NCBI GenBank assembly: GCA_964505185.1
Contig: CAZDGM010000001.1
Location: 263,734-327,733 of the forward strand
DNA length: 64,000 nt
DNA from: an uncultured Thermodesulfobacteriota bacterium
GTDB lineage: Bacteria; Desulfobacterota; JBBIRW01
Reading direction: 5' to 3'
Below, one piece after another: positions 1 through 54,587 of this stretch. The position numbers were made by a program, and so were the translations under genes. The notes beneath the pieces are model-generated. The model was not told where the DNA came from, did not search any database, and saw nothing but the letters and a program-made list of their open reading frames with translations. How positions within the stretch are numbered: position 1 is the first letter of the stretch; each line of letters starts with the position of its first letter.

Positions 1-608
1 TCCGCAATAGATACGGGGAGATTGGCAACGGATGAACAGCCTTCGATCCTTTTTAATCTCCCCCTCTCGAGGATTTCTACTGGTGAGATCGACTCTACAG
101 GATATATTTCAGCCTCTATTGAGCCACCTCCTTTAGGATAGAAGCCGTATGATCTGATCCTTAAACTGATCCTGATCCCTAACATATTTAGAAAATCTGC
201 GAACACCTTCTCAGCATAATCGTAAATGGGACTGAAGGGAACATGTGTTCCGCCTTTTATAAAGATCCTTGAAACATCTCCGGCAAAGATAAGGGAAGGT
301 ATAAGGGTTTGAAGGAGCAGTATAGATGATCCCGCGGTGCCTATATTAAATGAATACTCTCCTGCCTTTATCCTTCTGGGTGAAAAAATCAGTTCTGTTG
401 AGCCTATGGACCCTCCCTCCATATCTGCATCAGAAATTTCCTTTGCTGCCTTTATGGAGGCGAGATGCTGTGGCATGAGGCCTGGTTTTTCCCTGCCCTT
501 CCTTATGTTAAATATTCTGAAGGGTTTTCCTGTTATACAGGAAATACTGAGGGCGGTTCTCAGGATCTGCCCACCACCTTCACCATAGCTTCCATCTATA
601 ACTATCAT
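1..608 (-). CDS. rtcA: RNA 3'-terminal phosphate cyclase RtcA (N-terminal part; gene runs off the window start)
   Basis: Reverse-strand translation from ATG (rc of 606-608) reads MIVIDGSYGEGGGQILRTALSISCITGKPFRIFNIRKGREKPGL.QHL, the conserved RtcA N-terminus. There is no stop before the window edge. This ORF is not in the six-frame track because it is open-ended. Confidence 0.8.
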   Translation of the reverse strand, partial: MIVIDGSYGEGGGQILRTALSISCITGKPFRIFNIRKGREKPGLMPQHLASIKAAKEISDADMEGGSIGSTELIFSPRRIKAGEYSFNIGTAGSSILLLQTLIPSLIFAGDVSRIFIKGGTHVPFSPIYDYAEKVFADFLNMLGIRISLRIRSYGFYPKGGGSIEAEIYPVESISPVEILERGRLKRIEGCSSVANLPVSIA

Positions 609-687
609 ACTCACTAATATACCAGAAAATTCGGATGCTTGAATGTCCACCTATGAGGGTTTAAGTTATTTACTGAGGGAGGTTTTT

Positions 688-2145
688 ATGCCACATGCAC
701 TTCCATTTCGAAAAATAAAAGATTTTACCTATGAGATTCCGAAGGATTTCAAAGATGGGATGCGCGTTCCAGCCAGGATATATGTAACAGAGAAACTGAT
801 GAAAGAGATGGACTCGCAGGTCTTTGAACAGATAACAAATGTTGCAACACTTCCGGGTATTGTAAATTATGCCCTCTGTATGCCAGATGCACACTCCGGT
901 TATGGATTTCCCATCGGTGGTGTTGCTGCAATGGATCTGGAGGAAGGTGTAATATCACCAGGGGGTATTGGTTTTGATATAAACTGTGGAATGAGACTTG
1001 TTCTTACTTCCCTGACATTTGATGATATTAAATCAAGGATCAAAGAGATTGTTGATCTATTATTTGAAAGGGTTCCCTGTGGTGTGGGAAGCACCGGATT
1101 TCTGAAACTTAACAGAAATGAATTCATGGAGGTTCTTTCTGAAGGAGCAAGGTGGTGTGTAAGAAAGGGTTTTGGCTGGGAGGAGGATCTTGAAAGAACA
1201 GAAGAGGGGGGATGTATTCAGGGTGCGGATCCATCAAAGATCAGTGAAAAGGCAGTTGAAAGGGGAATAAATCAAATAGGAACCCTAGGATCAGGCAACC
1301 ACTATCTTGAGATTCAGATAGCAAAACCTGAAAACATATACGATGAAAGACTGGCAAAGATCTTCGGCATATCAATACCTGATCAGGTTGTAGTGATGTT
1401 TCACTGTGGTAGTCGTGGATTCGGGCATCAGGTTGCAACTGATTATCTTCAAATATTTCTTAAGGTTATGGAGAAGAAATACGGAATCAGCGTAAGGGAT
1501 AGGGAACTTGCCTGTGCACCCTTTGATTCTCCTGAAGGTCAGGATTATTTTGCTGCCATGAAGTGCGGGATAAATATGTCATTTGCAAACAGACAGGTAA
1601 TAACCCATAGAATAAGAGAGGTTTTTGAAAAGGTATTCAAGGAGGATGCAAAGAAGCTCGGGATGCAGATGGTTTACGATGTTTCACACAATACAGCAAA
1701 GCTTGAAAAACATTTTGTTAATGGAAAGGAGACGCAGCTTATTGTTCACAGAAAGGGAGCTACACGTGCCTTTGCTCCTGGAATGGAAGGGTTGCCTGAA
1801 ATCTACAGAGAAACAGGTCAGCCTGTTATTATTGGCGGGAGCATGGAGACAGGGAGCTATCTACTTGCAGGGATAAGTTCGGGGGCAAAGAGTTTCTTCT
1901 CAACAGCGCATGGTAGTGGAAGGACGATGAGCAGAACGAAGGCAAAGAAGTTATTTGAAGGAAGGGCTCTCCAGAGACAGATGGAAGAAAAGGGAATTTA
2001 CGTGAGAACGGCGTCCTTTTCAGGACTTGCTGAGGAAGCTGGTGCTGCTTACAAGAATATAGATGAAGTAGTTGATGCCACGGAGTTCGCAGGACTTTCA
2101 AAAAAGGTTGTGAGATTCATTCCAGTTGGAAACATCAAGGGTTAA
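688..2145 (+). CDS. rtcB: RNA-splicing ligase RtcB (3'-phosphate/5'-OH RNA ligase)
   Basis: The 500-aa frame carries RtcB hallmarks (MPDAHSGYGFPIGGV, GGIGFDINCGMRL, GSGNHYLE, HNTAKLE). Likely true start is ATG 688, preceded by AGGGAGG. The upstream ATG 643 has no RBS. The alignment to archaeal RtcB begins near Met16. Confidence 0.9.
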   Translation: MPHALPFRKIKDFTYEIPKDFKDGMRVPARIYVTEKLMKEMDSQVFEQITNVATLPGIVNYALCMPDAHSGYGFPIGGVAAMDLEEGVISPGGIGFDINCGMRLVLTSLTFDDIKSRIKEIVDLLFERVPCGVGSTGFLKLNRNEFMEVLSEGARWCVRKGFGWEEDLERTEEGGCIQGADPSKISEKAVERGINQIGTLGSGNHYLEIQIAKPENIYDERLAKIFGISIPDQVVVMFHCGSRGFGHQVATDYLQIFLKVMEKKYGISVRDRELACAPFDSPEGQDYFAAMKCGINMSFANRQVITHRIREVFEKVFKEDAKKLGMQMVYDVSHNTAKLEKHFVNGKETQLIVHRKGATRAFAPGMEGLPEIYRETGQPVIIGGSMETGSYLLAGISSGAKSFFSTAHGSGRTMSRTKAKKLFEGRALQRQMEEKGIYVRTASFSGLAEEAGAAYKNIDEVVDATEFAGLSKKVVRFIPVGNIKG

Positions 2146-2159
2146 ATTATTGTTTACAT

Positions 2160-3473
2160 ATGATCACAAAAACTCCTCTTACGCTGATAACGGGATATCT
2201 CGGCAGTGGCAAGACAACCCTTCTTAGAAATATCGTAAGGGATGCAAGGAAAAAGATTGCCATTGTCGTAAATGAATTCGGGGAGATCCCCATAGATAGC
2301 AAGGTTCTGGAGGGGAAGAATATCAGGATGGCTGAGCTCGCCGGAGGATGTGTATGCTGTTCACTATCAGGGGAATTTGAGGCAGCAGTTGAGGAGATAA
2401 TAAATGAAATAGGACCCGATATAATTTTTGTTGAGACGACTGGTCTTGCTGAACCGGATTCACTAATAGATATCATAGGTGAGGCATTAAAGATGGTGAA
2501 ACTTGACACAGTGGTCACTGTTGTTGATGCGGATGCCATGGTTAGATTTCCGGAAATAGGCTATACAGGGAGGATACAGATTGAATCGGCTGATGTAATT
2601 TTAATAAATAAGATAGATCTGGTCCATGAAGAGGATCTCTTACAGGTTGAGGAAAGGGTAAAGGAAATTAACAGAAGGGCAACCCTTTTCAGAACCTCTT
2701 TCTGCAATATAGATACAGAGCTTTTATCTGGGATGGGAATAGAGAGATATTTATCACATGCTGTTCATGCCCAACATGATATGGATTACTTTACTTTCTG
2801 TACAAATGAGATAATCAAAAGGGAAAGATTTGAGGAGATGGTAAAGGGCCTCTCTGGAAAGATATACAGGGCAAAGGGATTTGTAAAATTTTCCGATGGT
2901 TCCTACCTGTTCAATTATGTCTCTGATCGATGGGATTTTGAAGAATTTGAGTCAGAGGGTACGCGTCTTGTATTTATCGGTCACCGGGCTGGTCAAATAA
3001 AGGACGAGGTGATTTCTCAATTAGAAAGCATGAAATTGAAATTTGAGTACAGATTTCTTGAAGATCTGGCCACCGCGGATGTCGCATTTGAGGCAAAGGG
3101 TGATACGATTGAGGAACTTTTTATTTCCTCTGCGCTTGCAACAACAAATATTATGATACTTCAAACAGGTCAGATTGATCTTAAAGATAGAAGAGAGATA
3201 GAAATTGAGGCTGAAGAACTGGATCTTCTCCTTTTTAATCTTCTTCAGGAGATGATCTTTTTCAAAGATACAGAAAAACTGATCTTTGGAGAGTTTAATG
3301 TGAAAATTGGAAAGAAGGGCGATAAATGGATGCTCAGGATGAAGGCAGCCGGGGAAAGGATCAATCCGGAAAAACATATGCTTCATCTTGATGTGAAGGC
3401 AGTGACACTGCACATGCTTGAGGTGAGGAAAGATAATAATGGATGGATAGCTCATGTTATTCTTGATGTTTAG
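2160..3473 (+). CDS. Fusion protein: COG0523/CobW-type G3E GTPase (putative metallochaperone) N-terminal, archease C-terminal
   Basis: N-terminal part has P-loop GYLGSGKTTLL, VNEFGE, the GCVCC metal-binding motif and the CobW_C-like KGFVKFSDGSY...LVFIG. C-terminal ~146 aa align along their whole length with archease (ATADVAFEAKGDTIEELF...INPEKH...KAVTLH...GWIAHVILDV). Confidence 0.85.
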   Translation: MITKTPLTLITGYLGSGKTTLLRNIVRDARKKIAIVVNEFGEIPIDSKVLEGKNIRMAELAGGCVCCSLSGEFEAAVEEIINEIGPDIIFVETTGLAEPDSLIDIIGEALKMVKLDTVVTVVDADAMVRFPEIGYTGRIQIESADVILINKIDLVHEEDLLQVEERVKEINRRATLFRTSFCNIDTELLSGMGIERYLSHAVHAQHDMDYFTFCTNEIIKRERFEEMVKGLSGKIYRAKGFVKFSDGSYLFNYVSDRWDFEEFESEGTRLVFIGHRAGQIKDEVISQLESMKLKFEYRFLEDLATADVAFEAKGDTIEELFISSALATTNIMILQTGQIDLKDRREIEIEAEELDLLLFNLLQEMIFFKDTEKLIFGEFNVKIGKKGDKWMLRMKAAGERINPEKHMLHLDVKAVTLHMLEVRKDNNGWIAHVILDV

Positions 3474-3499
3474 AAGCATTTATAGAATGATGAGGGGTA

Positions 3500-5383
3500 A
3501 TGTGGCGGAAATTCGATAAGGCAGAAACCGTATCCCTTCCTGAAATTTACGAATCAGTGAAGATCCCCCATTACTGGAAATGGTGGAAGCGTCTCTTTGC
3601 TTTCCTTGGTCCTGCATATCTTGTTTCTGTGGGATACATGGATCCGGGTAACTGGGCGACGGATCTTGAAGGGGGAGCGAAATTTGGATACAGGCTCATA
3701 TGGGTTCTCCTTGCGAGCAATCTGATGGCTGTTTTGCTGCAAATGCTTTCTGCTCGTCTGGGTCTTGTCACGAGATGCGATCTCGCACAGGCATGTCGTG
3801 AAGCATATCCGCCTTTTGTATACTATCCTCTGTGGATCATCTGTGAACTTGCAATAGCTGCATGCGATCTCGCTGAAGTCCTTGGAACGGCGATAGGTTT
3901 GAATCTTCTTTTTGGGATTCCGCTTATAATCGGTGTCAGTTTAACAGCTCTTGATACAATCCTTCTCCTCTTTATACAGCGATACGGGATTCGCAAATTT
4001 GAAGGGATGATCCTCGGTCTCGTATTTGTCGTAGGTTGTTGCTTCGTTGTTGAAATCTTTCTTGCTAAACCTGACTTCAGATCAATTATAGGTGGTTTTA
4101 TTCCCACAATTGACAGAGAAAGCCTCTATGTTGCACTGGGCATGCTCGGGGCAACTGTTATGCCACACAACCTTTACCTTCATTCAGCGCTTGTTCAGAG
4201 CAGAGCAGTTGAGCGAACAGATAAGGGCATCCGGGCAGCAGTGCGCTTTAATCTTATAGATACATTTATTGCTCTCAATGCTGCTTTCTTTGTGAATTCA
4301 GCAATACTTGTTCTCTCATCTTCTGTTTTTTATTCTCGAGGTATTGAGGTGGTTGAGATTCAGCAGGCGCACGAACTTCTCTCACCACTGCTGGGAACAG
4401 GTCTTGCCTCTACTGCCTTTGCTGTTGCCCTTCTTGCTGCAGGTCAATCTTCGACACTCACAGGAACACTTGCAGGGCAGGTTGTGATGGAGGGGTTTAT
4501 CCGGATAAAGATTCAGCCATGGGCAAGAAGACTCATTTCTCGATTACTTGCGATCATTCCTGCAGTTATTGTTATTGCAATAAGCGGAAGCCATGGGACA
4601 TACAGGCTTCTTATACTGAGTCAGGTGATTCTCTCTTTGCAGCTTCCCTTTGCAATTGTTCCCCTTATCCAATTCACAAGTGATCGTGAATGGATGGGAA
4701 AATTTGTGAGCCCTCTATGGGTAAGGGTCCTTTCATGGCTTGTTGCACTTTTTATCATAAGTCTTAATGTCTGGCTTGTTTGGGTGACGGTGTCTGAATG
4801 GAGGATGAAAGCTATGTGGGTTGATTTTATAGTAATTCCAATTGGTGCATATTTGATGCTATTATTGGGGTATATGGGATTTGGACCGTTTATTAAGAAA
4901 TTATTAGAAAAGAAACCACCCTCTGTACCGGAACCCGTGCTACCATCCATTCAGGAGGACACTGGGTATGGGAAGATAGGGGTTGCTCTTGAGGTGAGGG
5001 AAACGGACCAAAAGATACTCAAGCATGCACTTGCCCTTGCAACGAGATACAATGCAGAGATTATTCTGATTCATATTGTTGAGAGTGCAACTGCTCAGGT
5101 CTGGGGCGGAACTGTGGAGGATAGGGAAAGAACAGAGGACGAGGATTATCTAATAAAACTTTCAGAAAAGATCAGGGCACAGGGAATAAGGGCGAGTTTC
5201 CGAATAGGATTTGGAAATGCAGCAAAAGGGGTTGTAAAAATAGCGAAAGAAGAGAATCTTGACCTTCTTGTCCTCGGGAGTCATGGCCACAAACATATAA
5301 AAGACTGGATATATGGTTCAACAGTTTCTGCTGTTCAACATGATATAGGTGATATACCCATCCTCGTTGTAAAAGGGACATAA
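3500..5383 (+). CDS. mntH: NRAMP-family divalent metal (Mn2+/Fe2+) transporter MntH fused to a C-terminal universal stress protein (UspA) domain
   Basis: GYMDPGNWATDLEGG (DPGN motif) and 11-12 TM helices. The C-terminal ~140 aa have the Usp fold signature (ILIHIVES..., LLVLGSHGH..., ILVV). Confidence 0.85.
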   Translation: MWRKFDKAETVSLPEIYESVKIPHYWKWWKRLFAFLGPAYLVSVGYMDPGNWATDLEGGAKFGYRLIWVLLASNLMAVLLQMLSARLGLVTRCDLAQACREAYPPFVYYPLWIICELAIAACDLAEVLGTAIGLNLLFGIPLIIGVSLTALDTILLLFIQRYGIRKFEGMILGLVFVVGCCFVVEIFLAKPDFRSIIGGFIPTIDRESLYVALGMLGATVMPHNLYLHSALVQSRAVERTDKGIRAAVRFNLIDTFIALNAAFFVNSAILVLSSSVFYSRGIEVVEIQQAHELLSPLLGTGLASTAFAVALLAAGQSSTLTGTLAGQVVMEGFIRIKIQPWARRLISRLLAIIPAVIVIAISGSHGTYRLLILSQVILSLQLPFAIVPLIQFTSDREWMGKFVSPLWVRVLSWLVALFIISLNVWLVWVTVSEWRMKAMWVDFIVIPIGAYLMLLLGYMGFGPFIKKLLEKKPPSVPEPVLPSIQEDTGYGKIGVALEVRETDQKILKHALALATRYNAEIILIHIVESATAQVWGGTVEDRERTEDEDYLIKLSEKIRAQGIRASFRIGFGNAAKGVVKIAKEENLDLLVLGSHGHKHIKDWIYGSTVSAVQHDIGDIPILVVKGT

Positions 5384-5396
5384 ATAAGCAGGAAAT

Positions 5397-6431
5397 CTAA
5401 TTATTTCTTCTGATCGTTAGAATCATAAGGGCTGCCATAATGATTGATTGAGAGATTACTTTTGCAGGATTTAGCTCAACAGATGGAAGAAGGAATAGCA
5501 ATCTTTCAAGAAATATACCTATAAGTATCAATACCGATATAATTGAGACGATCGATGGAATCGTTTTTGCCTTTCTTGAAAGGAGTGTTAGAAAAGGGAG
5601 GAAGAATAGCGAGGGGAGTATAACAAGCGAGATATTCCTGTAGGGCGATAATTGAGTCCTCACAAACAGAAAGCTTACCTCTTCAGGAATGTTTCCATAC
5701 CAGATGACAAGGAACTGCGCATAGAAAAGTCCTGCCCAAAGTAAGCTGAACCCGAAAATTAGTGTAGCAATATCCCTCAAAGTTTTGATTAAGCCTTCAC
5801 TTGACTGGCTTTCGGTTTTTCTCATAAGAAACAAACATATAATCCCTGAAATTGCAATACCGGAATATATGGATTCAATGAAAAAATAACCTCCAAAGAG
5901 AGTGCTGTACCACGGATATTCGAGAGACATTATCCAGTCAATGGCAATCATTGATTGTGATGCAACAAAGAACGCTATATAGATTGAGCCATAGATGTTT
6001 TTTCTTTCACTATCAATTAATGATTCCCTGGAGAACTTTCGTGCAGATAAAAAGGAAAGAAAAAGCAGGAAGAAGTTTCTTGCTATAAAGAATGGCCTGT
6101 TTAACCATAATCCTTCACTTTTAACCCATGGATATATATCCAGCTCATGAATAAGAAAGAGGAAAAGGATTGAGTGAAGCAATAACAACGGGTAAACGGA
6201 AAGAAGGTATCTCTTCAGCGGAGCTATCCATTTAGCCTTTGCAATATTAGCTGCTGCAACAAGGGCAATGCAGCCCTGCGTGATGGCTATCCAATATGAA
6301 AGAGTGAAGAGAAGTGAACCCTTTGTTATCCCTGCAAAAAACTCAATAGCAACAATAAAAAATCCACCGATAAAGAGATATAAGAAGTAATAGTTAATCC
6401 TCATCTCCTTTTCCATCATCTTCTCCATCAT
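5397..6431 (-). CDS. actF: Alternative complex III membrane subunit, ActF-like (NrfD/PsrC family polytopic protein)
   Basis: Polytopic membrane protein at the distal end of the act cluster. NrfD-like motifs (FLVIWYGNIPEE). Overlaps actD stop. Confidence 0.5.
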   Translation of the reverse strand: MMEKMMEKEMRINYYFLYLFIGGFFIVAIEFFAGITKGSLLFTLSYWIAITQGCIALVAAANIAKAKWIAPLKRYLLSVYPLLLLHSILFLFLIHELDIYPWVKSEGLWLNRPFFIARNFFLLFLSFLSARKFSRESLIDSERKNIYGSIYIAFFVASQSMIAIDWIMSLEYPWYSTLFGGYFFIESIYSGIAISGIICLFLMRKTESQSSEGLIKTLRDIATLIFGFSLLWAGLFYAQFLVIWYGNIPEEVSFLFVRTQLSPYRNISLVILPSLFFLPFLTLLSRKAKTIPSIVSIISVLILIGIFLERLLFLLPSVELNPAKVISQSIIMAALMILTIRRNN

Positions 6432-6849
6432 CTATCACTATTGTGAATCTGTTATCAAATTCCATGGGATTAATAATCCATCGAATATCAGGGAGGCGTG
6501 AGAGTAAAAGGAATCCGAGAAATGATGTGATCGCTCCAAAAAGAATTGTCAATTCAAATGCAATAATAACAAATGCAGGGATGGATATCAGTGGCTTTCC
6601 TCCTGTTATAAGAGGCCAGCTTAAAACTGTATAAGTCGTGAATCCGAAGCCTGTAATAGTTCCAGTGATAGCACCAAGAAGGGTAATGATATTCAGTTTG
6701 CTAACCGGCCTTCCAAGGATCTCTTCTACTTCTTCGACGGGGAAAGGGAGATATATTTGCATCCGATCAGCAGGTACACCTTTTTTTAAAAGCTCCTTAA
6801 GTTTTTCGATAAATTCGTGTTTGTCTTCAAATAAATATTCCTTTTTCAT
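6394..6849 (-). CDS. actD: Alternative complex III subunit ActD (membrane-anchored)
   Basis: About 150-aa protein with a central TM pair. Start ATG overlaps actC stop (ATGA), with GAGG RBS. Position is between actC and actF. The track ORF starts 45 codons upstream without an RBS. Confidence 0.55.
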   Translation of the reverse strand: MKKEYLFEDKHEFIEKLKELLKKGVPADRMQIYLPFPVEEVEEILGRPVSKLNIITLLGAITGTITGFGFTTYTVLSWPLITGGKPLISIPAFVIIAFELTILFGAITSFLGFLLLSRLPDIRWIINPMEFDNRFTIVIDDGEDDGKGDED

Positions 6850-8159
6850 TCGTGAACCTCTTTTAATTCTGTAATGGAAAGGATCGGAAGGACCTTCGCA
6901 AATATGAGAAAAAGCATGAAAAACATTCCGAAACTTCCAAGCGTGATTCCTATAGCAACAGGGCTGAATGATGGGAGTCCCCATGCGTAAGGATCAAAGT
7001 CTCTGGAAAGGGAAGTAACTATTATTACGAATCTTTCCATCCACATACCAACATTAACAAAAAGTGATGATATGAATAAGAATTTTATGTTTCTTCTTAA
7101 TTTTCCTATGAAGAGAAAGAGCGGGATAATGGAGTTGCAGATAATCATTATGGCGAAAAATATCCAGAAATCACCAAATGCCCTGTACCTGAATACTTCC
7201 ATCTCGAATATATTTCCACCATAAAATGCCATGGAGAACTCCACGATATATGAGTAGGTTACTATAAGTGATGTAAGAAGCAGTATTTTAGCGATACTAT
7301 CAAAGTGATCTAAGGTTATATATTTTTCAAGGGAAAAGAACTTTCTCATCGGAACAACAAGCGTTATTACCATTGCTGTTCCAGAAAATATAGCACCAGC
7401 AACAAAATATGGTGCAAATATGGTTGTATGCCAACCAGGAATAATGCTCATAGCAAAGTCCCATGAAACAACAGAATGAACTGAAACAACCAGTGGAGTT
7501 GCAAATGATGCAAGAAACATGTATAGTCTGTTATAGTGCCTCCATTGATCCGGTGTTCCCTGCCATCCAAGTGAGAGGAAAGAGTACAGGCGTTTCTTCC
7601 ATCCCGTTGAATATCTTCTTGCAATAGCGAGATCGGGAATCATACCAACGTAAAAGAAAATAAGGCTTACCGTAAAATAAGTCCCTACAGCGAAAACATC
7701 CCATATAAGCGGGGATCGAAAGTTAACCCAGAGCATTCTCTCATTTGGGTATGGAAGTAACCAGTAGAAAAGCCACGGTCTTCCAAGATGGATTATAGGG
7801 AAGAGTCCGGCAGTCATAATGGCAAAAACGGTCATCGCCTCCGCAGATCTATTGAAACTGCTTCTGAATCCTGCGCGGAATAGAAAAAGAACAGCTGATA
7901 TAAGTGTTCCTGAATGGGCGATTCCAACCCAGAATACGAAATTTGTTATATACATATACCATCCAACAGGATGTGTTTTACCGGAGACACCCATCCCTGT
8001 TTTTATCTGGTAGTACCAGAGAGACATGCCTGTTATAAACAGGATTGCAGAGATGCAAAGGAAGATCCAGTACTGGATATTCGGTTTCTTCATTGCAGCA
8101 AGAACATCCTTTTCAATCTGATAACGAAACTCAATGGCTTTGGAAATTGCGTTATTCAT
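6846..8159 (-). CDS. actC: Alternative complex III quinol-binding membrane subunit ActC (NrfD/PsrC family)
   Basis: About 10 TM helices in an NrfD-family polytopic protein directly after actB. True start MNNAISK has an AAAGAGGAAAAGAG RBS. The longer track ORF would overlap actB by 164 nt. Confidence 0.75.
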   Translation of the reverse strand: MNNAISKAIEFRYQIEKDVLAAMKKPNIQYWIFLCISAILFITGMSLWYYQIKTGMGVSGKTHPVGWYMYITNFVFWVGIAHSGTLISAVLFLFRAGFRSSFNRSAEAMTVFAIMTAGLFPIIHLGRPWLFYWLLPYPNERMLWVNFRSPLIWDVFAVGTYFTVSLIFFYVGMIPDLAIARRYSTGWKKRLYSFLSLGWQGTPDQWRHYNRLYMFLASFATPLVVSVHSVVSWDFAMSIIPGWHTTIFAPYFVAGAIFSGTAMVITLVVPMRKFFSLEKYITLDHFDSIAKILLLTSLIVTYSYIVEFSMAFYGGNIFEMEVFRYRAFGDFWIFFAIMIICNSIIPLFLFIGKLRRNIKFLFISSLFVNVGMWMERFVIIVTSLSRDFDPYAWGLPSFSPVAIGITLGSFGMFFMLFLIFAKVLPILSITELKEVHE

Positions 8160-10968
8160 CTCTTTTCCTCTTTCCAAGATAATATATTGATGGTTCTGTT
8201 CCGAGTTGCTCAAATATGCGATATGAACGGTCTGACTTTGAAAGTCTGTATAGAAATGAATTCTTATCAAGAATATTACCAAATGTAATTGCACGGGTTG
8301 GGCATGTCTGAGCACATGCAGGGATCACTTCCCCATCCCGTATGGACCTGCCTTCGTCCTTTGCTATATCACGTGCCCTTCTTATACGTTGTATGCAGAA
8401 TGTGCACTTTTCCATTACACCTGCCTGCCTTGCCGATACCTCAGGATTTAACATTCTGTCCCTTGGATATTCCCATTCATGAGGATACCAGTTAAATCTT
8501 CTGACCTTATATGGACAGTTATTCGAGCAGTATCTTGTTCCAACACATCTGTTATAGATTTGTGCATTTATTCCTTCAGGATTATGATATGTTGCATAAA
8601 CAGGGCAGACAGGCTCACATGGTGCATAATCACATTGCTGACATAGCATGAGATGGAATCTTATTCCATCCTTTTCATCATAAAATGGCTCAAGCCTGAT
8701 CCAGGACATCTCTCTTCCTTTGAGATGCTCATCAATTCCTACAATAGGAACATTGTTTTCGATATAACAAGCAGCAACACATGCAGAGCATCCTATACAG
8801 AGATCGAGATCGATAGCCATAGCCCATCGGTAATTTTCATGTTTATGTTCAGGATATAAACTCTCTTTGTGTTTTTTATTATTTTCCCTTCTATGTATGG
8901 GATAAGGTATTATACCCCTCCCTTCCTGTGACATTGAGCCTGAAAGGATTGGTATGGAAACCTTTTTTCCCGTTTTTCTTATATTTATACCTTCAATGTA
9001 TGAAAGGATTTCACCGCTTCTGGGATCGGTCAGGCCACTGTAATCTATCGATCCTCCGATCTGGACAATAAATATATCCTCTCCTATTCCTCTCTGAATC
9101 TTTGCAGGAACTCTTATAGACCATCGGTCCTTGCTAATTTCAAGCTCATCCCTTTCTGAGATATTCAATCTTTTTGCCGTTTCCTCTGAAAGGGAGACCC
9201 AGCTTCCATATGATATCGTGCTTATAGGATCTGGAATCTCCTTTAAGAGCTCGAGATCAGAAGATCTCCCATCAAAAAACCTCAGGGAAGGAGAAAAAAT
9301 AAGAAGGGGGGTTTTCATCGCTTCTGGATATTTGAGATCCCTGAGGAAGAGTTGTGCATTCTTTTCATTTAGTGATACCCTTACAGTGGAGGGGTTTTCT
9401 TCATGATAACCTTTTTCGATAAACATGTTTAGAGAATCTTTTCCATATCTTTTCTGGTAATTTCCCAAAACAAAGGATTTAAAATCTTCAGAAACAACTC
9501 TTCCACTTCTCCTCATAATTTCGATGATTAGGTCACCATCCGATTTTGTATTGAAAATGGCTTTTGTTGCAGGCTGCATAAGATTAACAAGTCCTCTTCT
9601 TGGATTTGCATCTCCCCATGATTCAAGAGAGTGAGAAAGAGGGAGGATAAGATCGCATAGTTTTGTTGTCTCATTGAAGGAGTCCGAAAGGGAGATCTTA
9701 AATCTTGCCCTAAGGAGTTTTTCTTTAATTCCAAGATGCGGAGGAAAGATAGAAACAGGATCTGTTTTAAGGAGAAAGAGTAAACCTATATCATTCTCAT
9801 CGATTGTTTTAAGGAGATTAACAAATTCCTCTGTTGTTCCTACCCTTGAGTAATTCTCTTCTCTGCTGAAATCAACAAGGCTACCAATAGATCCTGAAGC
9901 CCACTGGATTAATCCTGAGAGAACAGCCACGTCAAATCCACTGTTACTGCTGGTTGATACGCCGCCTGTTATAAGAAGCGGCTTTTTTGAATTAAGATAA
10001 GCATCCCTTATGAGAAGGATTTCTTCCTCTCTGAGCCCTGTTTTCTCTATCAGGAGATCCATAGAAAGAGGAGGAATTAATTGACCGACTGAAGCAGGAA
10101 TGTTGCCGATTGTTTTTCTTTTTTGAATAGAAGTTAGGATATAAATGAGAAGATATATCTCCGTTCCAGGATTGATTATAAATCTTTTATCAGAACATAT
10201 TCCTGTTAATGAAAGGTGTGGTTCAACATGAAACCACCTCAGGTTATTGTTTTTCCGTGCAATGGAGAATTGAACTGCATGTGAAACGGGACTGATAAAT
10301 GTCTCAAAAATATCAGCACCGATTGTTAAAAGAAAATCAGCATCCTTAATGTTATAGTAAGGTATCGAATATTTGCCGAAAAGAAATGAATTTGCCCTTC
10401 TGATTGCAGAATAATTATATATCTCAAGTTCCGGAAGTCTCTTTATATTGAATTCATGACAGAATTCATCAATGAGTGAGGAGAGGGAACCTGTTGTTCT
10501 TGATGAGAGAAAGAGGTTGTATTTTTTATCGGTCTTATGTTTTTCGATCTCCGAAATTATGGTCTGAAATGCTTGATCCCAGCTTATTGATCTGAAAACT
10601 CCATCCCTGTCCTTAGCCATGGGATTTTTTATACGGTGGGGGTTGTAGAGTCGTGTTATGGAGGCCTGACCCCTTATACATAGTGTGCCATCATTGATGG
10701 GATGATCCGGTATACCTTCAAGCTTTACAGGGTAAATACCCCTTTCCGTATCAAAGATCTTCTCATATGCTTTAACCTGAATCCCGCAGAGGGCAGGGCA
10801 TTCCGTGCAGGTTGTGTTGTAAAATACTGTCTCACCAGGTATGATCTCCTTTTCGGGTGGTATAGCGTAGGAAATGATTTTTCTTATACCTTTGTCAATG
10901 CCACAGGATGTAAGAAATGTTGATCCTGTAATAAAGCCAAGGAACTTCATGAAGTTTCTTCTATTCAT
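8152..10968 (-). CDS. actB: Alternative complex III subunit ActB (Tat-targeted molybdopterin-oxidoreductase-like domain fused to 4Fe-4S ferredoxin domain)
   Basis: Twin-arginine signal MNRRNFMKFLGF...TSCG. The N-terminal ~650 aa are molybdopterin-oxidoreductase fold. The C-terminal has 4x Cys clusters (CIGCSACVAAC, CQQCDYAPC, CPYK...). The 938-aa fused architecture is typical of ActB. Confidence 0.8.
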   Translation of the reverse strand: MNRRNFMKFLGFITGSTFLTSCGIDKGIRKIISYAIPPEKEIIPGETVFYNTTCTECPALCGIQVKAYEKIFDTERGIYPVKLEGIPDHPINDGTLCIRGQASITRLYNPHRIKNPMAKDRDGVFRSISWDQAFQTIISEIEKHKTDKKYNLFLSSRTTGSLSSLIDEFCHEFNIKRLPELEIYNYSAIRRANSFLFGKYSIPYYNIKDADFLLTIGADIFETFISPVSHAVQFSIARKNNNLRWFHVEPHLSLTGICSDKRFIINPGTEIYLLIYILTSIQKRKTIGNIPASVGQLIPPLSMDLLIEKTGLREEEILLIRDAYLNSKKPLLITGGVSTSSNSGFDVAVLSGLIQWASGSIGSLVDFSREENYSRVGTTEEFVNLLKTIDENDIGLLFLLKTDPVSIFPPHLGIKEKLLRARFKISLSDSFNETTKLCDLILPLSHSLESWGDANPRRGLVNLMQPATKAIFNTKSDGDLIIEIMRRSGRVVSEDFKSFVLGNYQKRYGKDSLNMFIEKGYHEENPSTVRVSLNEKNAQLFLRDLKYPEAMKTPLLIFSPSLRFFDGRSSDLELLKEIPDPISTISYGSWVSLSEETAKRLNISERDELEISKDRWSIRVPAKIQRGIGEDIFIVQIGGSIDYSGLTDPRSGEILSYIEGINIRKTGKKVSIPILSGSMSQEGRGIIPYPIHRRENNKKHKESLYPEHKHENYRWAMAIDLDLCIGCSACVAACYIENNVPIVGIDEHLKGREMSWIRLEPFYDEKDGIRFHLMLCQQCDYAPCEPVCPVYATYHNPEGINAQIYNRCVGTRYCSNNCPYKVRRFNWYPHEWEYPRDRMLNPEVSARQAGVMEKCTFCIQRIRRARDIAKDEGRSIRDGEVIPACAQTCPTRAITFGNILDKNSFLYRLSKSDRSYRIFEQLGTEPSIYYLGKRKRDE

Positions 10969-10980
10969 ATATCGCTCCGT

Positions 10981-11493
10981 TCATTTATGGCATGTGAGAC
11001 AATCTGTTGGTGCATCATTTACCCTGTGACATCTCACACACCAGCCCATCTTTAAAGTTCTTACTTTTCTTACCCTGTCCATGATCTGTACTTCACCGTG
11101 GCACTGCGAGCATTCTATCCCCTTCTTTATATGTCTTTTGTGTGAGAAATATACATGATCGGGAAGTTTGTGAATCCGGATCCATTCTATGGGTTTACGC
11201 TGTTCCCAGTATGAAGTAAGTTTCTTTATTTCAGGCCTTTCTGTGGCAACTGCCCTGTGGCAATCCATACATTTCTGGATATGAGGGATTCCCGCATTTT
11301 TTGATTTATCAGCGTAAACATGACAGAAGTTGCAGGGAAGACCAACCTTTGTGACATGTATACGGTGGCTGAAGGCAATGGGCTGAATGGGTGACCCATC
11401 ATAGTAGTAGTTGTAATAGCCCATTGCTAAAAATATGATGGAGAAGATGGATGCATAGCATGAAATGGTGGCAAGAACAAGGGATCTTCTCAC
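10981..11493 (-). CDS. actA: Alternative complex III pentahaem cytochrome c subunit ActA
   Basis: Five CxxCH motifs (CNFCH, CMDCH, CSQCH, CVRCH, CLTCH) in 170 aa with an N-terminal TM anchor. Confidence 0.8.
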   Translation of the reverse strand: MRRSLVLATISCYASIFSIIFLAMGYYNYYYDGSPIQPIAFSHRIHVTKVGLPCNFCHVYADKSKNAGIPHIQKCMDCHRAVATERPEIKKLTSYWEQRKPIEWIRIHKLPDHVYFSHKRHIKKGIECSQCHGEVQIMDRVRKVRTLKMGWCVRCHRVNDAPTDCLTCHK

Positions 11494-11502
11494 ATTCTCC
11501 TC

Positions 11503-12738
11503 CTACTTTTTCTCTCCGATCTCCTTCAGGAGATAGAATGAGACAGCCTCAATTTCATCATCTGGAAGTCCCAGGTTCGGCATTGGAGGATAGGATGGAT
11601 CTTTTTTCACAGGATTCTTTATGAATTTTTTAAGCTCATCAACCTTATTCCTGTAAGATGGAATAACAGCATTTAAAGGAGGACCAACAACCCTTTGGGT
11701 GAAGCTGTGACAGGCTGAGCAGATTGTTTTGAAAACCTTCTCGCCCTTTTCAAGGATTGCCTTCTCATCCAATTCAACCTTTTTCTTTTCAGCCCTTACC
11801 TCTTCTTTAACAGCCTGTGCTTTTGCTAATAATAACATGGTATTTTCTCTATGTGATGTTTCTCTTTCGATATATTCCATGCCGGAAACAATCATAAATT
11901 GCAATATGAAAAGGATGAGTATGCTATATTTGTATTCGGATTTTATTCCATCAAGGCGGTTGTAAAGGAGCCAAATGGAGATAGATGATGCCAGTGTTAA
12001 GAGTATTGATAGCAGAAATATAAAGGGTGATAGAGAAGGCTCAGGGAGGGTATAGATATACCAGAGGGAAAGCGGAGGTATAAAGATAAGCAATATCAGT
12101 GAGGAATAGGTTATGGCATTTCTGAGGTTAAAAAAAACTGCAAAGGTTGAGAAGGCAAATGAAAGCGCAAGAACAATAATCCGCAGGTATCTTACAACCG
12201 CATTCCATGAGATAAGCGGATCAATTGGATTCAAAAATAGATGGACCCTCTCCCTGTTTGATAGTGATGAAAGAACAGATGAGAGGATGTAAAGGGAGAA
12301 AAGCAGTGTCAGGATTGAGAAGATGGATGAAAGCAGTGCGATTGCGGGTTTTGTGCGAATAAGGTTTACTGTTGATCGATAAATATAAAGAAATATAAAT
12401 GAAACGAAGAGAAGGATATTGGAGAATAATGAAAGATTGACGAGATTCTTGTTCTCTATCATACCTGTTTCAATAAAAACAAGGAGTGCTATAATTGGCG
12501 GCAGGAGTCCTGCAAGAAATAAAAGACCCTTGCTCTTTGCAATGGTATTTATGATCGAGTGGGCGAGTTCAGATGAGAAGTGATTAGTTCCCCTGCCTCG
12601 GAGAAGAAGGAGGGAGAGGATCAAATATCCGAGAATAATGGATATGAAGGGGTAGAAGATAACAAATGCAAGTATTGAAATGTATCGAAGCGTTATTATA
12701 TGTTCAGGTTTGATAGCGATGGGATACTCCTGCATCAT
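11503..12738 (-). CDS. Polytopic membrane protein (~8 TM) with C-terminal monohaem class-I cytochrome c domain (CSACH...PPMP)
   Basis: Hydrophobic helices across ~300 aa, then a coiled-coil linker (EEVRAEKKKVELDEKAILEKGEK), then CSACH and a Met ligand region (SYPPMP). Located between coxB and actA. Confidence 0.6.
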   Translation of the reverse strand: MMQEYPIAIKPEHIITLRYISILAFVIFYPFISIILGYLILSLLLLRGRGTNHFSSELAHSIINTIAKSKGLLFLAGLLPPIIALLVFIETGMIENKNLVNLSLFSNILLFVSFIFLYIYRSTVNLIRTKPAIALLSSIFSILTLLFSLYILSSVLSSLSNRERVHLFLNPIDPLISWNAVVRYLRIIVLALSFAFSTFAVFFNLRNAITYSSLILLIFIPPLSLWYIYTLPEPSLSPFIFLLSILLTLASSISIWLLYNRLDGIKSEYKYSILILFILQFMIVSGMEYIERETSHRENTMLLLAKAQAVKEEVRAEKKKVELDEKAILEKGEKVFKTICSACHSFTQRVVGPPLNAVIPSYRNKVDELKKFIKNPVKKDPSYPPMPNLGLPDDEIEAVSFYLLKEIGEKK

Positions 12739-12801
12739 CAGGATTTTAATTTATATTATAGAAAAATAATAAAATTCATTCCCTATTTTAATTTTTTAAT
12801 A

Positions 12802-13395
12802 TCACTGCCCCGCTTCATACCATTTTACAAAGTCCTCTTCCGGCACCACAATTAGCTTTGAAAGCATATAGGAATGTCTGAGACCACAATACTCAGCACA
12901 TAATATATCGTATTCTCCCTGTATGTCTGTTTTAAACCAGAGGTGCGTTTTCATACCGGGGACAGCATCCTGTTTTATTCTTAAGGCGGGTATATATAGG
13001 CTGTGGATTACATCCATTGATGTAATGGTTAGCTTTACTGGCCTGCCGGCTGGCACATAAAGTTGATCGCTTTCTTTTCCATTTTCATACCTGAATGTCC
13101 ATGACCACATGCGTGCCGTAACATTTACATCCATCGATCCTTCGGGTATTTTACCCAGAACCCTATACCCTGTCCATCCGTAATAGAACATCGATAATAC
13201 AAGGATTATCGGGATAATGGTCCATGCGATCTCGAGGTAGGGATTTTCTGTGATATCAGCGGGCACCGGATTTCTCTTTCTGTTGAACCTGATAAGACAG
13301 TAGATCATGAAAACAGTGATTGAAATTAGAAGAAAGACTGAGATACCAGCTATATAGAAGAATGTGTTATCTACTCTTTCTGCAAAATTTTCCAT
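12802..13395 (-). CDS. coxB: Cytochrome c oxidase subunit II (CuA cupredoxin domain; no fused cytochrome c domain)
   Basis: Two N-terminal TM helices. CuA ligands HSLYIP ... CAEYCGLRHSYM. Confidence 0.85.
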   Translation of the reverse strand: MENFAERVDNTFFYIAGISVFLLISITVFMIYCLIRFNRKRNPVPADITENPYLEIAWTIIPIILVLSMFYYGWTGYRVLGKIPEGSMDVNVTARMWSWTFRYENGKESDQLYVPAGRPVKLTITSMDVIHSLYIPALRIKQDAVPGMKTHLWFKTDIQGEYDILCAEYCGLRHSYMLSKLIVVPEEDFVKWYEAGQ

Positions 13396-13403
13396 AAGTA
13401 ACT

Positions 13404-13697
13404 CTACCTAAAAGAGATATCAAAAAATGTGAATCCTATAATTATCGCAAGGGTAATAACAGAAAGAAGGAGCATGAAATGGAATAGGCGATCCTCATAT
13501 TTCAGATGCATAAAGAAGTTAAGAACCAGTAATGATTTGAATGATGCGATTGATAGCGCTGTGAGAACAGCAATTTTTCCGAGATTAAGAGCTGCTATAG
13601 TGACTGTAAATGCGGTGAGAACAATGAGAGATATCCACACGAAAAAATATGTCAAAAAGCCTGCTTCGTTTCTTTCGTTTTCCATTCCGATCCTCAT
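13404..13697 (-). CDS. coxD: Cytochrome c oxidase subunit IV (small bacterial CoxD/CtaF type)
   Basis: A 97-aa protein with 3 TM helices between coxB and coxC, overlapping coxC by 4 nt. Confidence 0.55.
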   Translation of the reverse strand: MRIGMENERNEAGFLTYFFVWISLIVLTAFTVTIAALNLGKIAVLTALSIASFKSLLVLNFFMHLKYEDRLFHFMLLLSVITLAIIIGFTFFDISFR

Positions 13698-14323
13698 GTT
13701 ATCAGATAAAAAAGTGGAAAGAGGTATATCCAGATTATATCCACAAAATGCCAGTATAGCCCTGTATTTTCAAGTTTAACAAAGTCATGCCTGTTTATAT
13801 TTTCCCTAAGGAGTAATACAAAAATTATGAAAAGGACAAAGATGCCTGCAAGAACATGTAAGGCATGAAGCCCTGTCATAACAAAGTAAAGATTGTAAAA
13901 AAGGACAACAGATGAATCTATGCCGGAAAGTGCTCCTGATCCCGGATAGATACCGTGTTCAATCTTATCCCCCCATTCAAAATATTTGTTCAAAAGGAAT
14001 AAAAGTCCGAAGATGATGGTGATCATGAGAAAGGAAGCGGATCTTATTCTACTTCCATTTTTTATAGAGAATATCGAGATAGCCATTGTGAGGCTGCTTG
14101 TAAGAAGAATTATTGTGTTTAACGTGCCTATTGCTATGTTGAGATCCTTTGCTGCAACATGGAATGAGATGGGATACTTTGCCCTGTATGTGGAATAAAG
14201 GAGAAAAAGACCGCCAAAAAGAAGCATTTCCGTAAATAAAAATAACCACATACCGATCTTTGAGCCAGTATAATCAGTGTGTTTTTCAACAGAAAAAGAA
14301 GTAATACCGAACATGAAAATCAC
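13694..14323 (-). CDS. coxC: Cytochrome c oxidase subunit III
   Basis: 209 aa with 5 TM helices and C-terminal [11 protein letters not shown], the conserved HxVDVVW motif. Confidence 0.8.
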
Positions 14324-15945
14324 CTTTTGAAATCATAGGGTCCTGCGCTGACAGCAGGTATATGCTCGAAGTTCTCAGGGGGCGGAGGAGACTGTATCTG
14401 CCATTCAAGCGTGCTTCCACCCCATAGATTATGTTCTGCCTTTTCACCATATTTCAGAGAATATATAAAATTGTAAAACATAATGATAAGACCAGTTGCA
14501 AGGATCCAGGAGCCAATGGTTGACATCAGATGAAGGGTATGGAATCTCGGAAGATAGTCATAATATCTCCTCGGCATTCCCTCCCATCCAAGAATAAACA
14601 TGGGAAAGTATAAAATATTAAAACCTGTAAAAAGAATGAGCCAGGCAATATTTGCAAGTCTTATGTTATACATCTTTCCAAACATCTTTGGAAACCAGTA
14701 GTGAAGTGCACCGAAAAAGGCAAAGGCAGTTCCCCCAAACATCGTATAATGGAAATGGCCAACGACAAAATATGTATCATGTATATGAACATCAGTGGCG
14801 AGTGCTCCATTTATAAGACCAGTTAAACCACCTATGGAAAACGCAAATATGAACGAGAGTGCATATAGCAGTGGAGGGGCAATTTCAATTGATCCTCCAT
14901 ACAGTGTTGCAACCCAGTTGAATGTCTTAACTCCACTTGGTATTGCTACGAGAAATGTTAACAGGGAAAATACCCACTTTGCAGTATCACTCATTCCGCT
15001 TGTGAACATGTGGTGTCCCCATACAAGATATCCAACGAGTGCTATGGAAAGACTCGAGAATGCTATTGCCTTATATCCGAATATATTCTTCTTTGAAAAA
15101 ACGGGGATTATTTCTGAGATAACACCCATCGCAGGAAGGATCATTATGTAAACAGCAGGGTGTGAATAGATCCAGAAGAGATGCTGAAACAGTAGAGGAT
15201 CACCCCCCTTTGCTGGATCAAAAAAGCCGATCCCAAAAAATCTTTCGCATATGATAAGAATTAGTGTTATTCCAACAACAGGTGTTGCAAGAAGCTGGAC
15301 CCAGCCTGTTGCATAAAGTGACCATACAAAAAGGGGCATGCGGAACCATCCCATTCCAGGTGCCCTCAATCTGTGTATGGTTGTCACGAAATTAAGTCCT
15401 GTTAGTATTGAGGAAAATCCAATTAAAAATGCACCCAAGACAGCGAGGGACACATTTGTTCCTGTTCTTATGCTGTATGGTGCATAGAACGTCCATCCTG
15501 TGTCAATAGGACCACCGCCTGTAAAAAGTGATATCACAGCAAGTGTTGCTCCTCCCATGAAGAAATACCATGACAGAAGATTTATCCTCGGAAACGATAC
15601 ATCCCTTGCACCTATGTGTATGGGAAGAAAGAAATTCCCGAAGGCAGCAGGTATTCCAGGGATAACAAATAAAAATATCATTATGACCCCATGAAGGGTG
15701 AATATGGAATTATACGTCTGCGGACCCATTATGGTTCTTCCTGGTGCAATAAGCTCAAGCCTCATAAGAAGTCCAAGGATAACACCGATAGAGAAGAAAG
15801 AAAGCATGGAGAGAAGGTAGAGTATGCCTATCCTCTTATGGTTCGTTGATAGGATCCAGGAAAGTATCCCCTGATATCTCCCTTTTTCTTCAAGGAAGCT
15901 AATCGTGTGCAGTCTCTGGAGATTGGACTCCTTTGTCATATTCAA
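14320..15945 (-). CDS. coxA: Cytochrome c oxidase subunit I (haem-copper oxidase catalytic subunit)
   Basis: 541 aa with 12 TM helices. Motifs [34 protein letters not shown]. Confidence 0.9.
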
Positions 15946-16754
15946 CCCCTGCTTCCCCTGTTTCTCAAAAGAAATATTGAGAATCCAGCAAGTGAAAGTA
16001 GTATGATTACACCTCCAATCCTTGTTATATTAAGCACGTATCTCCTGGCTTCGGGATCATAACTGTAGCAAAGAAGAAGCACTTTATTTATAGTCGCCCC
16101 CGTTCTTCCTTCAGATGCCTCCGCAATAGCCATTTTCAGATCGAATGGAAGGAGTGCCTTTCCAGGAACATAACGGATAATTTTACCGTCACTTGAAAGA
16201 ACAAGCAGTGAAACAGGATGTATAAATTCATCACCCTTTCTTTTGAAATTAAACCCGATTGCATCGGTGAGCCTTTTAATCGATTCTCTATCTCCTGTGA
16301 GAAATTTCCACGAATCATCAGGAATCTTTTTCTTGATAATCTTTTGAAAAATCCTCTTTTTTTCAAATGCCTTTTCCGGCTTATCATTTTCATCAAAGCT
16401 AAATGTTATTATGGAGTAGTCTCTTCCTGGTTCTGCCTCCATCTTATCAACGAGACGTGCAATCTCTTCAAGGAGAAGATTGCAAACATTGGGACAGCTG
16501 AAGTAAACAGGAGAAAGTATCACCGGCGTCTTAAAGAGTTCCTTGATCGAAACAACCTTCCCATTCTCATCGGTAAAAACCAGATCCAGAGGGATAAATT
16601 TACCTGTTCTATCCTCTATAATTACCTCTTCCCTCTCTTCCATCGCATCCGTATGTGCCTTTAACGGATATGTGGAAGAGATTAACAGAATAGTTATTAT
16701 GGGCAGATATTCTCCTAAGAATGCAAAGATTTTTCGCAAAAATACTCTTATCAT
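15942..16754 (-). CDS. sco: SCO1/SenC family copper chaperone (thioredoxin-like, CPNVC motif)
   Basis: N-terminal TM helix. FSCPNVC (CxxxC), a conserved H later. First gene of the cox operon, overlapping coxA start. Confidence 0.75.
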
Positions 16755-28626: not shown

Positions 28627-29109
28627 ATGCCTGCCTTTCTTCAGATCGATCCTTCAAGATGCACCGCTTGCAGGCTCTGTGAACTTGCCTGCTCCTTTGA
28701 AAAATTTCGTGAATTCAACCCTGAAAAATCATGTATCAGGGAGGTTGTACTCCTTGAGGAGGCATTTTACATACCTGTGGTATGCTACCAGTGCGATGAG
28801 GCCTGGTGTATGAAAGTATGCCCATCTGTTGCTCTAACAAGAAATCGTGAACTGGGTATTATTGAATTAAATGAAACAAGATGCACGGGATGCAGGATGT
28901 GCACCATGGCGTGTCCTTTTGGCGTTATGTTTTATTCCGCCGAGAAGGGGAAGGTATTCAAATGCGATCTCTGCAGGGGCAATCCTGCCTGCGCAAGGAT
29001 ATGTCCTACAAAGGCTATTGAATACAGGGAAGAAGATCTAACACTTCAGCGAAAGAGGAAGATTTACAGCATGAAACTCATGGATGCATACAGGGAGGTG
29101 CAGAGATGA
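28627..29109 (+). CDS. aorA: Poly-4Fe-4S ferredoxin-like electron-transfer subunit of aldehyde oxidoreductase (AorA-like)
   Basis: Four CxxCxxCxxxCP-type clusters. The stop overlaps the AOR start. Confidence 0.75.
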   Translation: MPAFLQIDPSRCTACRLCELACSFEKFREFNPEKSCIREVVLLEEAFYIPVVCYQCDEAWCMKVCPSVALTRNRELGIIELNETRCTGCRMCTMACPFGVMFYSAEKGKVFKCDLCRGNPACARICPTKAIEYREEDLTLQRKRKIYSMKLMDAYREVQR

Positions 29110-32158: not shown

Positions 32159-32167
32159 GGGGTCGAT

Positions 32168-54463: not shown

Positions 54464-54587
<124 letters not shown>

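Follow-up and report, generated by a model that had tools for sequence, protein, structure and literature searches.

We found that rtcB, a distinct subfamily of COG0523 (CobW-type G3E) GTPase genes and the gene for archease form a conserved gene module that is present in distant bacterial phyla and in DPANN archaea. The module is described here from a 64,000-nucleotide stretch of DNA of an uncultured Thermodesulfobacteriota bacterium (contig CAZDGM010000001.1, positions 263,734 to 327,733; the whole stretch is called the window). GTPases of the subfamily are ~294 amino acids (aa) long. In the window, the GTPase and archease are fused in a single protein, and the fusion gene is followed by mntH::usp, which is predicted to encode an Nramp-family Mn2+/Fe2+ importer that carries a C-terminal Usp domain. 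What appears to be new is the extension of the known rtcB-archease operon by a COG0523 metallochaperone-type GTPase; the window holds a fused, mntH-extended example. We give a probability of roughly 0.6 to the following interpretation: the operon serves an RtcB of the archease-dependent type, a dedicated COG0523 GTPase would be its third component and would aid the loading of metal into RtcB, and mntH::usp is a lineage-specific addition.

All four genes were found where an earlier reading of the letters alone (the sequence-only reading) had placed them, and their matches to family profiles were strong. The genes, and the domains of the fusion, are (positions in the window):

608 to 1, minus strand: rtcA, RNA 3'-phosphate cyclase (Pfam RTC, E = 1e-62; TIGR03399, 277 bits against a cut-off of 250)
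688 to 2145, plus strand: rtcB, 485 aa (Pfam RtcB PF01139, E = 3e-170, model positions 1-426)
2160 to 3473, plus strand: COG0523 (CobW-type G3E) GTPase::archease fusion, 437 aa (cobW, E = 6e-48; CobW_C, E = 2e-11; Archease, E = 2e-38)
2175 to 2687, plus strand: G domain of the fusion, with Walker A GSGKTT (aa 15-20), CVCC (aa 64-67), ETTG (aa 92-95) and NKID (aa 150-153)
2790 to 3029, plus strand: CobW_C domain of the fusion, with RxKG (R237-A-K239-G240) (Pfam CobW_C, E = 2e-11)
3048 to 3473, plus strand: archease domain of the fusion (Pfam PF01951, E = 2e-38, model positions 1-136; aligned to 4n2p, 1jw3 and 8btx)
3500 to 5383, plus strand: mntH::usp, Nramp with C-terminal Usp, 627 aa (Nramp, E = 4e-135; NF001923 MntH, 597 bits against a cut-off of 430; Usp, E = 1e-21)

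The module of rtcB, a COG0523 GTPase and archease across phyla

Stand-alone relatives of the GTPase (~294 aa, 50-61% identical) were many and fused relatives were few. On the contigs of the stand-alone relatives, rtcB was followed by the GTPase gene and then by archease, all adjacent and co-oriented. We searched 80 genome loci and 43 metagenome loci with COG0523 relatives, using the six protein segments of the window, and took as the subfamily those loci whose COG0523 gene was at least 45% identical to the window G domain (n = 25 non-self loci). Archease was present at 24 of these 25 loci and rtcB at 21. None of the 104 other COG0523 loci (25-43% identical) had rtcB, archease, rtcA or Nramp. 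Fisher's exact test gave p = 2e-20 for rtcB and p = 3e-25 for archease. The module was found in Cyanobacteria, Verrucomicrobiota, Acidobacteriota, Latescibacterota, Tectomicrobia, Gemmatimonadota, Kerfeldbacteria (of the Candidate Phyla Radiation, CPR), Aenigmatarchaeota and Woesearchaeota (DPANN). The cyanobacteria that carry it include Scytonema, Microcoleus, Trichocoleus and Aerosakkonema. All-against-all clustering of the neighbouring open reading frames revealed no other recurrent partner, such as a metal transporter. The sequence-only reading had linked a metallochaperone to RtcB at this one locus. That link is real and runs deeper than a single stretch of DNA could reveal: it recurs across phyla.

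The cyanobacterium Myxacorys chilensis provides a second, independent case in which rtcA accompanies the module: its rtcA is co-oriented with the rtcB, GTPase and archease genes and directly follows them (L012:9387-10022).

The module resembles the rtcB-archease "tRNA splicing operon" (PMC3973293, PMC4604427), in which an archaeal/human-type RtcB is encoded beside archease, and the residues for activation are kept here. Unlike that operon, it has a COG0523 GTPase gene between the two genes or fused to the archease N terminus, and no GTPase is mentioned in those papers. A literature search found no link of RtcB or archease to COG0523, CobW or G3E; the neighbourhood surveys of Edmonds et al. 2021 (Metallomics) and Burroughs & Aravind 2016 (NAR) were outside its reach. 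A search for archease together with cobalamin returned nothing relevant. The link also goes unmentioned in the founding COG0523 survey, a 2024 review of metallostasis (PMC11672702), a 2023 review of RtcB and the rtcB-archease operon paper (PMC3973293).

The fusion protein, its origin and RtcB

The metal-binding motif of the G domain, CVCC (CxCC, within GGCVCCS and between G2 and G3), is encoded at nucleotides (nt) 2349-2360. In an alignment of 24 subfamily members (A1), Walker A, CxCC, ETTG, NKxD and RxKG (R237, K239, G240) were invariant columns, and the Glu residues beside CxCC were also invariant across the subfamily. RxKG is reported to be an arginine-finger motif common to the whole superfamily (PMC13001444). 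The protein is like the known COG0523 G3E proteins (CobW, ZigA/ZagA/YeiR/YjiA, Nha3, and ZNG1 with its client METAP1) in having all G motifs, CxCC, CobW_C and RxKG. It is unlike them in being short (~294 aa), in its predicted client, an RNA ligase with its activator, and in its gene context, in which nothing related to Zur, B12 or nitrile hydratase was seen. Its candidate metal, Mn, is not described for the family in PMC2770081 or PMC11672702.

Two known members of the family were considered and rejected as identities for the GTPase. For CobW proper, TIGR02475 gave 124 bits against a cut-off of 332, and the neighbours are rtcB and archease, not cob genes. For the zinc chaperone ZigA, NF038288 gave 99 bits against a cut-off of 600, and the neighbours are not Zur-regulon genes.

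The archease domain keeps the metal-binding Asp (in TADV), the Lys (in DVKAVT) and the C-terminal LDV-COOH, which are equivalent to D12, K117 and D141-I142 of Pyrococcus horikoshii archease; the C-terminal position, which provides a carboxylate ligand, is exactly preserved. The functional residues of archease were defined in PMC3973293, and those of the metal site are essential for RtcB activation (PMC3973293). Unlike P. horikoshii archease, the module archeases examined do not have His at the position of His9. The residue is mostly Ala: Ala in the window, Ala, Val or Thr in 11 of 11 fused proteins, and Ala in all 4 of the stand-alone module-linked archeases examined. Mutation of His9 in P. 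horikoshii archease lowered RtcB activation (PMC3973293). MTH1598 archease has Val at this position, so His is not universal in the family. Separately, we observed that the module-linked archeases, fused or not (window 3048-3090; L008-L010, L137), share a very short N terminus of the form M-x-Y-x-F-L-E-D.

An AlphaFold2 model of the fusion had a predicted local distance difference test score (pLDDT) of 78. It matched Zn-bound YjiA (4ixm, E = 6e-16), the best structural match of the GTPase. The archease domain of the model had a Foldseek TM-score of 0.87 to P. horikoshii archease (4n2p) and a root-mean-square deviation of 2.1 A to the archease in the human RTCB complex (8odo). The geometry of the domains relative to each other was dropped, the predicted TM-score (pTM) of 0.44 being too low.

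By its sequence, the RtcB of the window is a 3'-phosphate/5'-OH RNA ligase of the archaeal/human type and is predicted to depend on GTP and Mn. It matched P. horikoshii RtcB (7lfq/1uc2) with 564 bits and keeps DINCG, GSGNH, HCGSRGFGH, SHN and AHGSGR in alignment with that protein. We take these motifs to hold the metal ligands D95, C98, H203, H234 and H329 and the guanylylated H404 (P. horikoshii numbering). With the shorter RtcB-family model NF007153 (379 positions), the protein scored 154 bits against a cut-off of 407.

The GTPase and archease have been fused at least three separate times. They are encoded by two separate genes in all 15 species-representative genomes. In a neighbour-joining tree of the G domain, fused proteins occupied at least three separate positions, each beside unfused genes: the window clade with P0011/P0015 (bootstrap 63), P0006 with P0115 (99), and P0003-P0010 in a clade of their own (76). 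Recurrent fusion argues for a physical partnership of GTPase and archease. The locus L137 has full synteny with the window (RtcB 84% identical) and encodes a 295-aa GTPase and a 142-aa archease in genes that overlap by 4 nt. Since this syntenic relative is still unfused, the fusion in the window is recent. An ATGA-type overlap as in L137 could have been the junction from which the fusion arose.

The two loci also differ in how far their genes have diverged. L137 and the window are 80% identical in RtcA, 84% in RtcB, 75% in Nramp and 75% in Usp, but only 51% in the GTPase and only 47% in archease (L137:10466-11778 against 2160-3473). The GTPase of the window is nearer to that of the non-syntenic locus L008 (61%) than to that of L137. 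Such a pattern points to in-place replacement of the GTPase-archease pair or to its rapid evolution in one lineage.

Transcription of the locus and the Nramp::Usp gene

The edge of the window cuts rtcA (start codon 606-608) so that its first 202 codons are present. The ortholog is complete in L001/L002 (348 aa, with an RTC_insert domain). An alternative opening of rtcB at 643 is possible, and the GGAGG at 678-682 favours the ATG at 688. The 485-aa product is identical to a protein recorded in a public collection, and its nearest named matches are from Nitrospirota and Acidobacteriota (74-76%). As the sequence-only reading had it, rtcA and rtcB diverge from a gap of 79 base pairs (bp; 609-687), and gaps of 14 nt (2146-2159) and 26 nt (3474-3499) separate rtcB, GTPase::archease and mntH::usp, all of which can be read from the DNA itself. 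The order from rtcB to mntH::usp was retained in three genome groups (RtcB 84-94% identical). In L137, the successive gaps from rtcB through mntH::usp are 7 nt, -4 nt (the overlap) and 6 nt. No terminator-like site was found between the three genes of the window, in a terminator scan that was at chance level. Given this and the tight packing (26 nt here, 6 nt in L137), the three genes, which are packed like an operon, are likely to be co-transcribed within the lineage.

It had also been claimed that no RtcR is encoded at the locus, and this was borne out for the window and its syntenic relatives. We found none in the window and none in the 8-9 kilobases (kb) beyond rtcA in syntenic relatives, where the DNA past the rtcA 3' end contains ubiA, coxABC and an Rrf2 regulator; these neighbourhoods bear on the possibility that an rtcR with a sigma-54 promoter lies just outside the window, upstream of rtcA. 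The -24/-12 element of sigma-54 promoters, TGGCAC-N5-TTGC, has zero occurrences in the whole window. The sole gene in the window with a sigma-54-interaction domain (46638-48110) has an N-terminal PilZ domain in place of one of the RtcR/CARF kind and is without the GAFTGA loop. With no divergent gene combining CARF, AAA+ and helix-turn-helix (HTH) domains and no -24/-12 promoter, we rejected an RtcR/sigma-54-controlled rtcBA operon.

The sequence-only reading took the absence of RtcR as a departure from the canonical arrangement. It is not unusual, because this RtcB is of the archaeal/human, archease-dependent type known from rtcB-archease operons (PMC3973293) and not of the Escherichia coli type. 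The rtcR-rtcBA locus of E. coli and Salmonella is described as using sigma-54 and the activator RtcR (Genschik et al. 1998, as cited in PMC10630183). The window is like that locus in that rtcA and rtcB are neighbours. It is unlike it in that the two genes are divergent, RtcR and a sigma-54 promoter are absent, and RtcB is a 485-aa, archease-dependent protein.

The region between rtcA and rtcB was aligned for the window, L002 and L137, and contains blocks that are conserved in the three genomes:

609 to 687: divergent intergenic region, 79 bp
616 to 621: AATATA block (TATATT when read on the minus strand), 7 nt upstream of the rtcA ATG
638 to 646: CTTGAATGT block, containing TTGAAT (plus strand) and TTCAAG (minus strand)
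662 to 667: TAAGTT block, 17 nt after TTGAAT
678 to 682: GGAGG, the rtcB ribosome-binding site

On the minus strand, the spacing from TTCAAG to TATATT is 16 nt. From these blocks we infer back-to-back sigma-70-like promoters that would have one common -35 block. Transcription is most likely from sigma-70-like promoters such as these and not from RtcR/sigma-54. The position of TATATT, 7 nt from the ATG, suggests that the rtcA transcript is leaderless. The predicted transcript starts are near 674 for rtcB and near 608 for rtcA. Rfam gave no match in positions 1-6000, even with E up to 1, and no riboswitch or Y RNA; an inverted repeat or operator palindrome was not found in the rtcA-rtcB gap. We also observed a 14-nt direct repeat, TACTGAGGG(C/A)GGTT, at 545-558 (inside the rtcA coding sequence) and 671-684 (overlapping the rtcB ribosome-binding site), which may be due to chance.

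In the product of mntH::usp, the Nramp domain spans aa 52-403 and the Usp domain aa 490-625. The latter has the motif G-x2-G-x9-G-S-T (GSHGHKHIKDWIYGST) at ~aa 575-590 (nt 5220-5270), which is of the ATP-binding type as judged from the translation. The Nramp::Usp transporter may be gated by nucleotide. This architecture is common, with more than 100 clusters among the top matches, the named ones being from Bacteroidota, Ignavibacteria, KSB1 and Calditrichota. The stand-alone proteins of these groups have the same two domains and are 55-72% identical. They are encoded alone or after an MntR-type repressor gene; unlike them, the gene in the window is the last of the rtcB operon. Only in the lineage of the window (L001-L003, L093, L137/L138) does mntH::usp adjoin the rtcB module.

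The sequence-only reading had taken the locus literally as one stress-induced unit that imports Mn for RtcB, with mntH::usp as an integral part. We consider this rather unlikely. The tight co-oriented packing in three related genomes is consistent with such a unit, as are the requirement of RtcB for Mn2+ (PMC10944509), the ATP-binding-type motif of Usp and the result that tblastn found no MntR/DtxR gene in the window. The part of the claim that stood is the operon-like packing of rtcB, GTPase::archease and mntH::usp. The part that did not stand is the supply of Mn as a general feature of the system: an Nramp or Usp neighbour was present at 0 of the 25 other module loci. Orthologs of mntH::usp that are ~70% identical are located elsewhere, in one case (L092) directly after a gene for a DtxR/MntR-family repressor and in another (L091) alone, and the stand-alone architecture is widespread. 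We take the adjacency of mntH::usp as a hint, of a circumstantial kind, that the metal is Mn, and not as a defining feature. Within the lineage of the window, Mn uptake is probably coupled to expression of the ligase.

Several features around the locus were observed in passing. The downstream neighbour of mntH::usp (5397-6431) is convergent and opens an alternative complex III / cytochrome oxidase cluster. It belongs to a respiratory block on the minus strand (5397-16754), convergent on mntH::usp, with cytochrome c genes and a COX1 oxidase gene (14320-15945). The genes for alternative complex III are ActD (6394-6984), an NrfD-like gene (6846-8315) and a gene for a 938-aa molybdopterin/Fe-S ActB-like protein (8152-10968). 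The far side of rtcA is occupied, in relatives, by a second cox cluster and a gene for an Rrf2 regulator, so that the rtc genes stand between two respiratory clusters. On the plus strand, positions 29106-34159 contain genes for a tungsten-type aldehyde:ferredoxin oxidoreductase, then a pyridine-nucleotide-disulphide oxidoreductase and an ADP-forming acyl-CoA synthetase, and look like an aldehyde-oxidation module. The gene at 46638-48110 (plus strand) combines PilZ, a sigma-54-interaction AAA+ domain and HTH_8 without GAFTGA. It appears to encode an unusual enhancer-binding-like regulator that is possibly responsive to cyclic di-GMP and may not act via sigma-54. A full-length 5S rRNA (54471-54583, plus strand; 100 bits) is the sole Rfam match at the gathering threshold in the window, which contains no 23S rRNA, 16S rRNA or tRNA, and the 5S rRNA appears to be an orphan.

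Possible roles of the GTPase

In the human complex, the conserved tip of archease enters the active site of RTCB, where archease takes part in coordinating GTP and metal ions (PMC10944509). Mn2+ supports guanylylation and activity of RTCB, and equimolar Zn2+ abolishes them (PMC10944509). Which metals occupy the active site of RtcB, where they come from, whether archease supplies one of them and whether it carries a pre-bound metal are posed as open questions in the same work (PMC10944509). For COG0523 proteins, GTP hydrolysis is thought to drive transfer of the CxCC-bound metal to a client enzyme (PMC11672702). Finding the clients is the main unsolved problem of the family, and few are established (PMC11672702, PMC13001444).

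We propose that the GTPase of the module would bind metal at the CxCC site and, through or together with archease, to which it would be docked or fused, would draw on GTP hydrolysis to place metals in the RtcB active site or to correct those present there. The metal supplied would probably be Mn, which is the candidate because of the requirement of RtcB and the mntH neighbour. In the lineage of the window, the Mn importer, as the last gene of a tightly packed rtcB unit, would couple Mn uptake to ligase expression. A bolder form of this proposal is that the rtcB-linked subfamily is the first GTP-driven Mn metallochaperone, with RtcB as its client and archease as the docking adaptor that carries the metal to the active site. 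We put this forward tentatively, as a possibility that is more doubtful than a role in metal loading as such.

Several points weigh against a role of the GTPase in loading RtcB with metal, or against parts of it. This role is one we infer from gene context and family membership. The Cys-rich CxCC motif is a poor set of ligands for Mn2+. Delivery of Mn would be without precedent among the characterised COG0523 proteins, whose metals are Zn, Co or Fe. Some loci of the subfamily are without rtcB: L006, L018 and L023, which are on short or edge-cut contigs, and L011, which has none within 8 kb. In addition, L097 has an rtcB-archease operon without the GTPase, which indicates that the GTPase is not universally required. 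The adjacency of mntH to the module arose once, in a single lineage, and none of the other module loci shows it. A generic promoter scan was at chance level, and the promoters were assigned from three related sequences. The AlphaFold2 model (pTM 0.44, pLDDT below 50 in the metal loop) gives no confident arrangement of the domains.

It is possible, if doubtful, that the GTPase serves RtcB with a metal other than Mn. Insertion of Zn or Co is one option; a more plausible one is that inhibitory Zn or Cu would be stripped from the Cys/His site in a form of metal proofreading or repair. Under this reading, mntH would be incidental. The CxCC of characterised COG0523 proteins binds Zn with high affinity (PMC11672702), and removal of Zn would suit the chemistry of CxCC better. 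Further, Zn2+ blocks guanylylation of RTCB despite equimolar Mn2+ (PMC10944509), and the active-site Cys of RtcB is prone to metal-induced oxidation (PMC12263435). On the other hand, no Zur box or zinc-linked neighbour was seen at the module loci, and the sole metal-transport gene seen beside the module is that of an Mn/Fe importer. Nor is removal of metals known for any G3E protein, which counts against stripping.

We think it improbable that the GTPase, instead of being a metallochaperone, senses GTP as a switch or acts as an assembly factor to gate the interaction of archease with RtcB, which consumes GTP. The fusion partner is archease and not RtcB, and archease alters the nucleoside triphosphate specificity of RtcB (PMC3973293), both of which are consistent with a switch. 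A pure switch would not need CxCC or the nearby Glu residues, and the invariance of this metal motif across the subfamily makes such a role less likely than one in metal loading. Finally, that the neighbourhood is functionally meaningless, four genes merely adjacent, would agree with promoter and terminator scans at chance level, but the cross-phylum association (p ~1e-20), the recurrent, independent fusions and the genes of L137, which overlap or are 6-7 nt apart, speak strongly against chance for the trio of rtcB, GTPase and archease and leave it possible only for mntH::usp and rtcA.

Based on the module across phyla and the repeated fusion of GTPase and archease, a specific client and a specific partner can be named for a COG0523 protein. 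The prediction is testable with proteins from the cultured cyanobacteria that carry the module. If it is true, nucleotide-driven metal insertion would extend to an enzyme of RNA repair and tRNA splicing, and possibly to manganese. If the GTPase is in addition an Mn metallochaperone, this would settle the question of the pre-bound metal of archease and would explain how the Cys/His site of RtcB escapes zinc poisoning in vivo.

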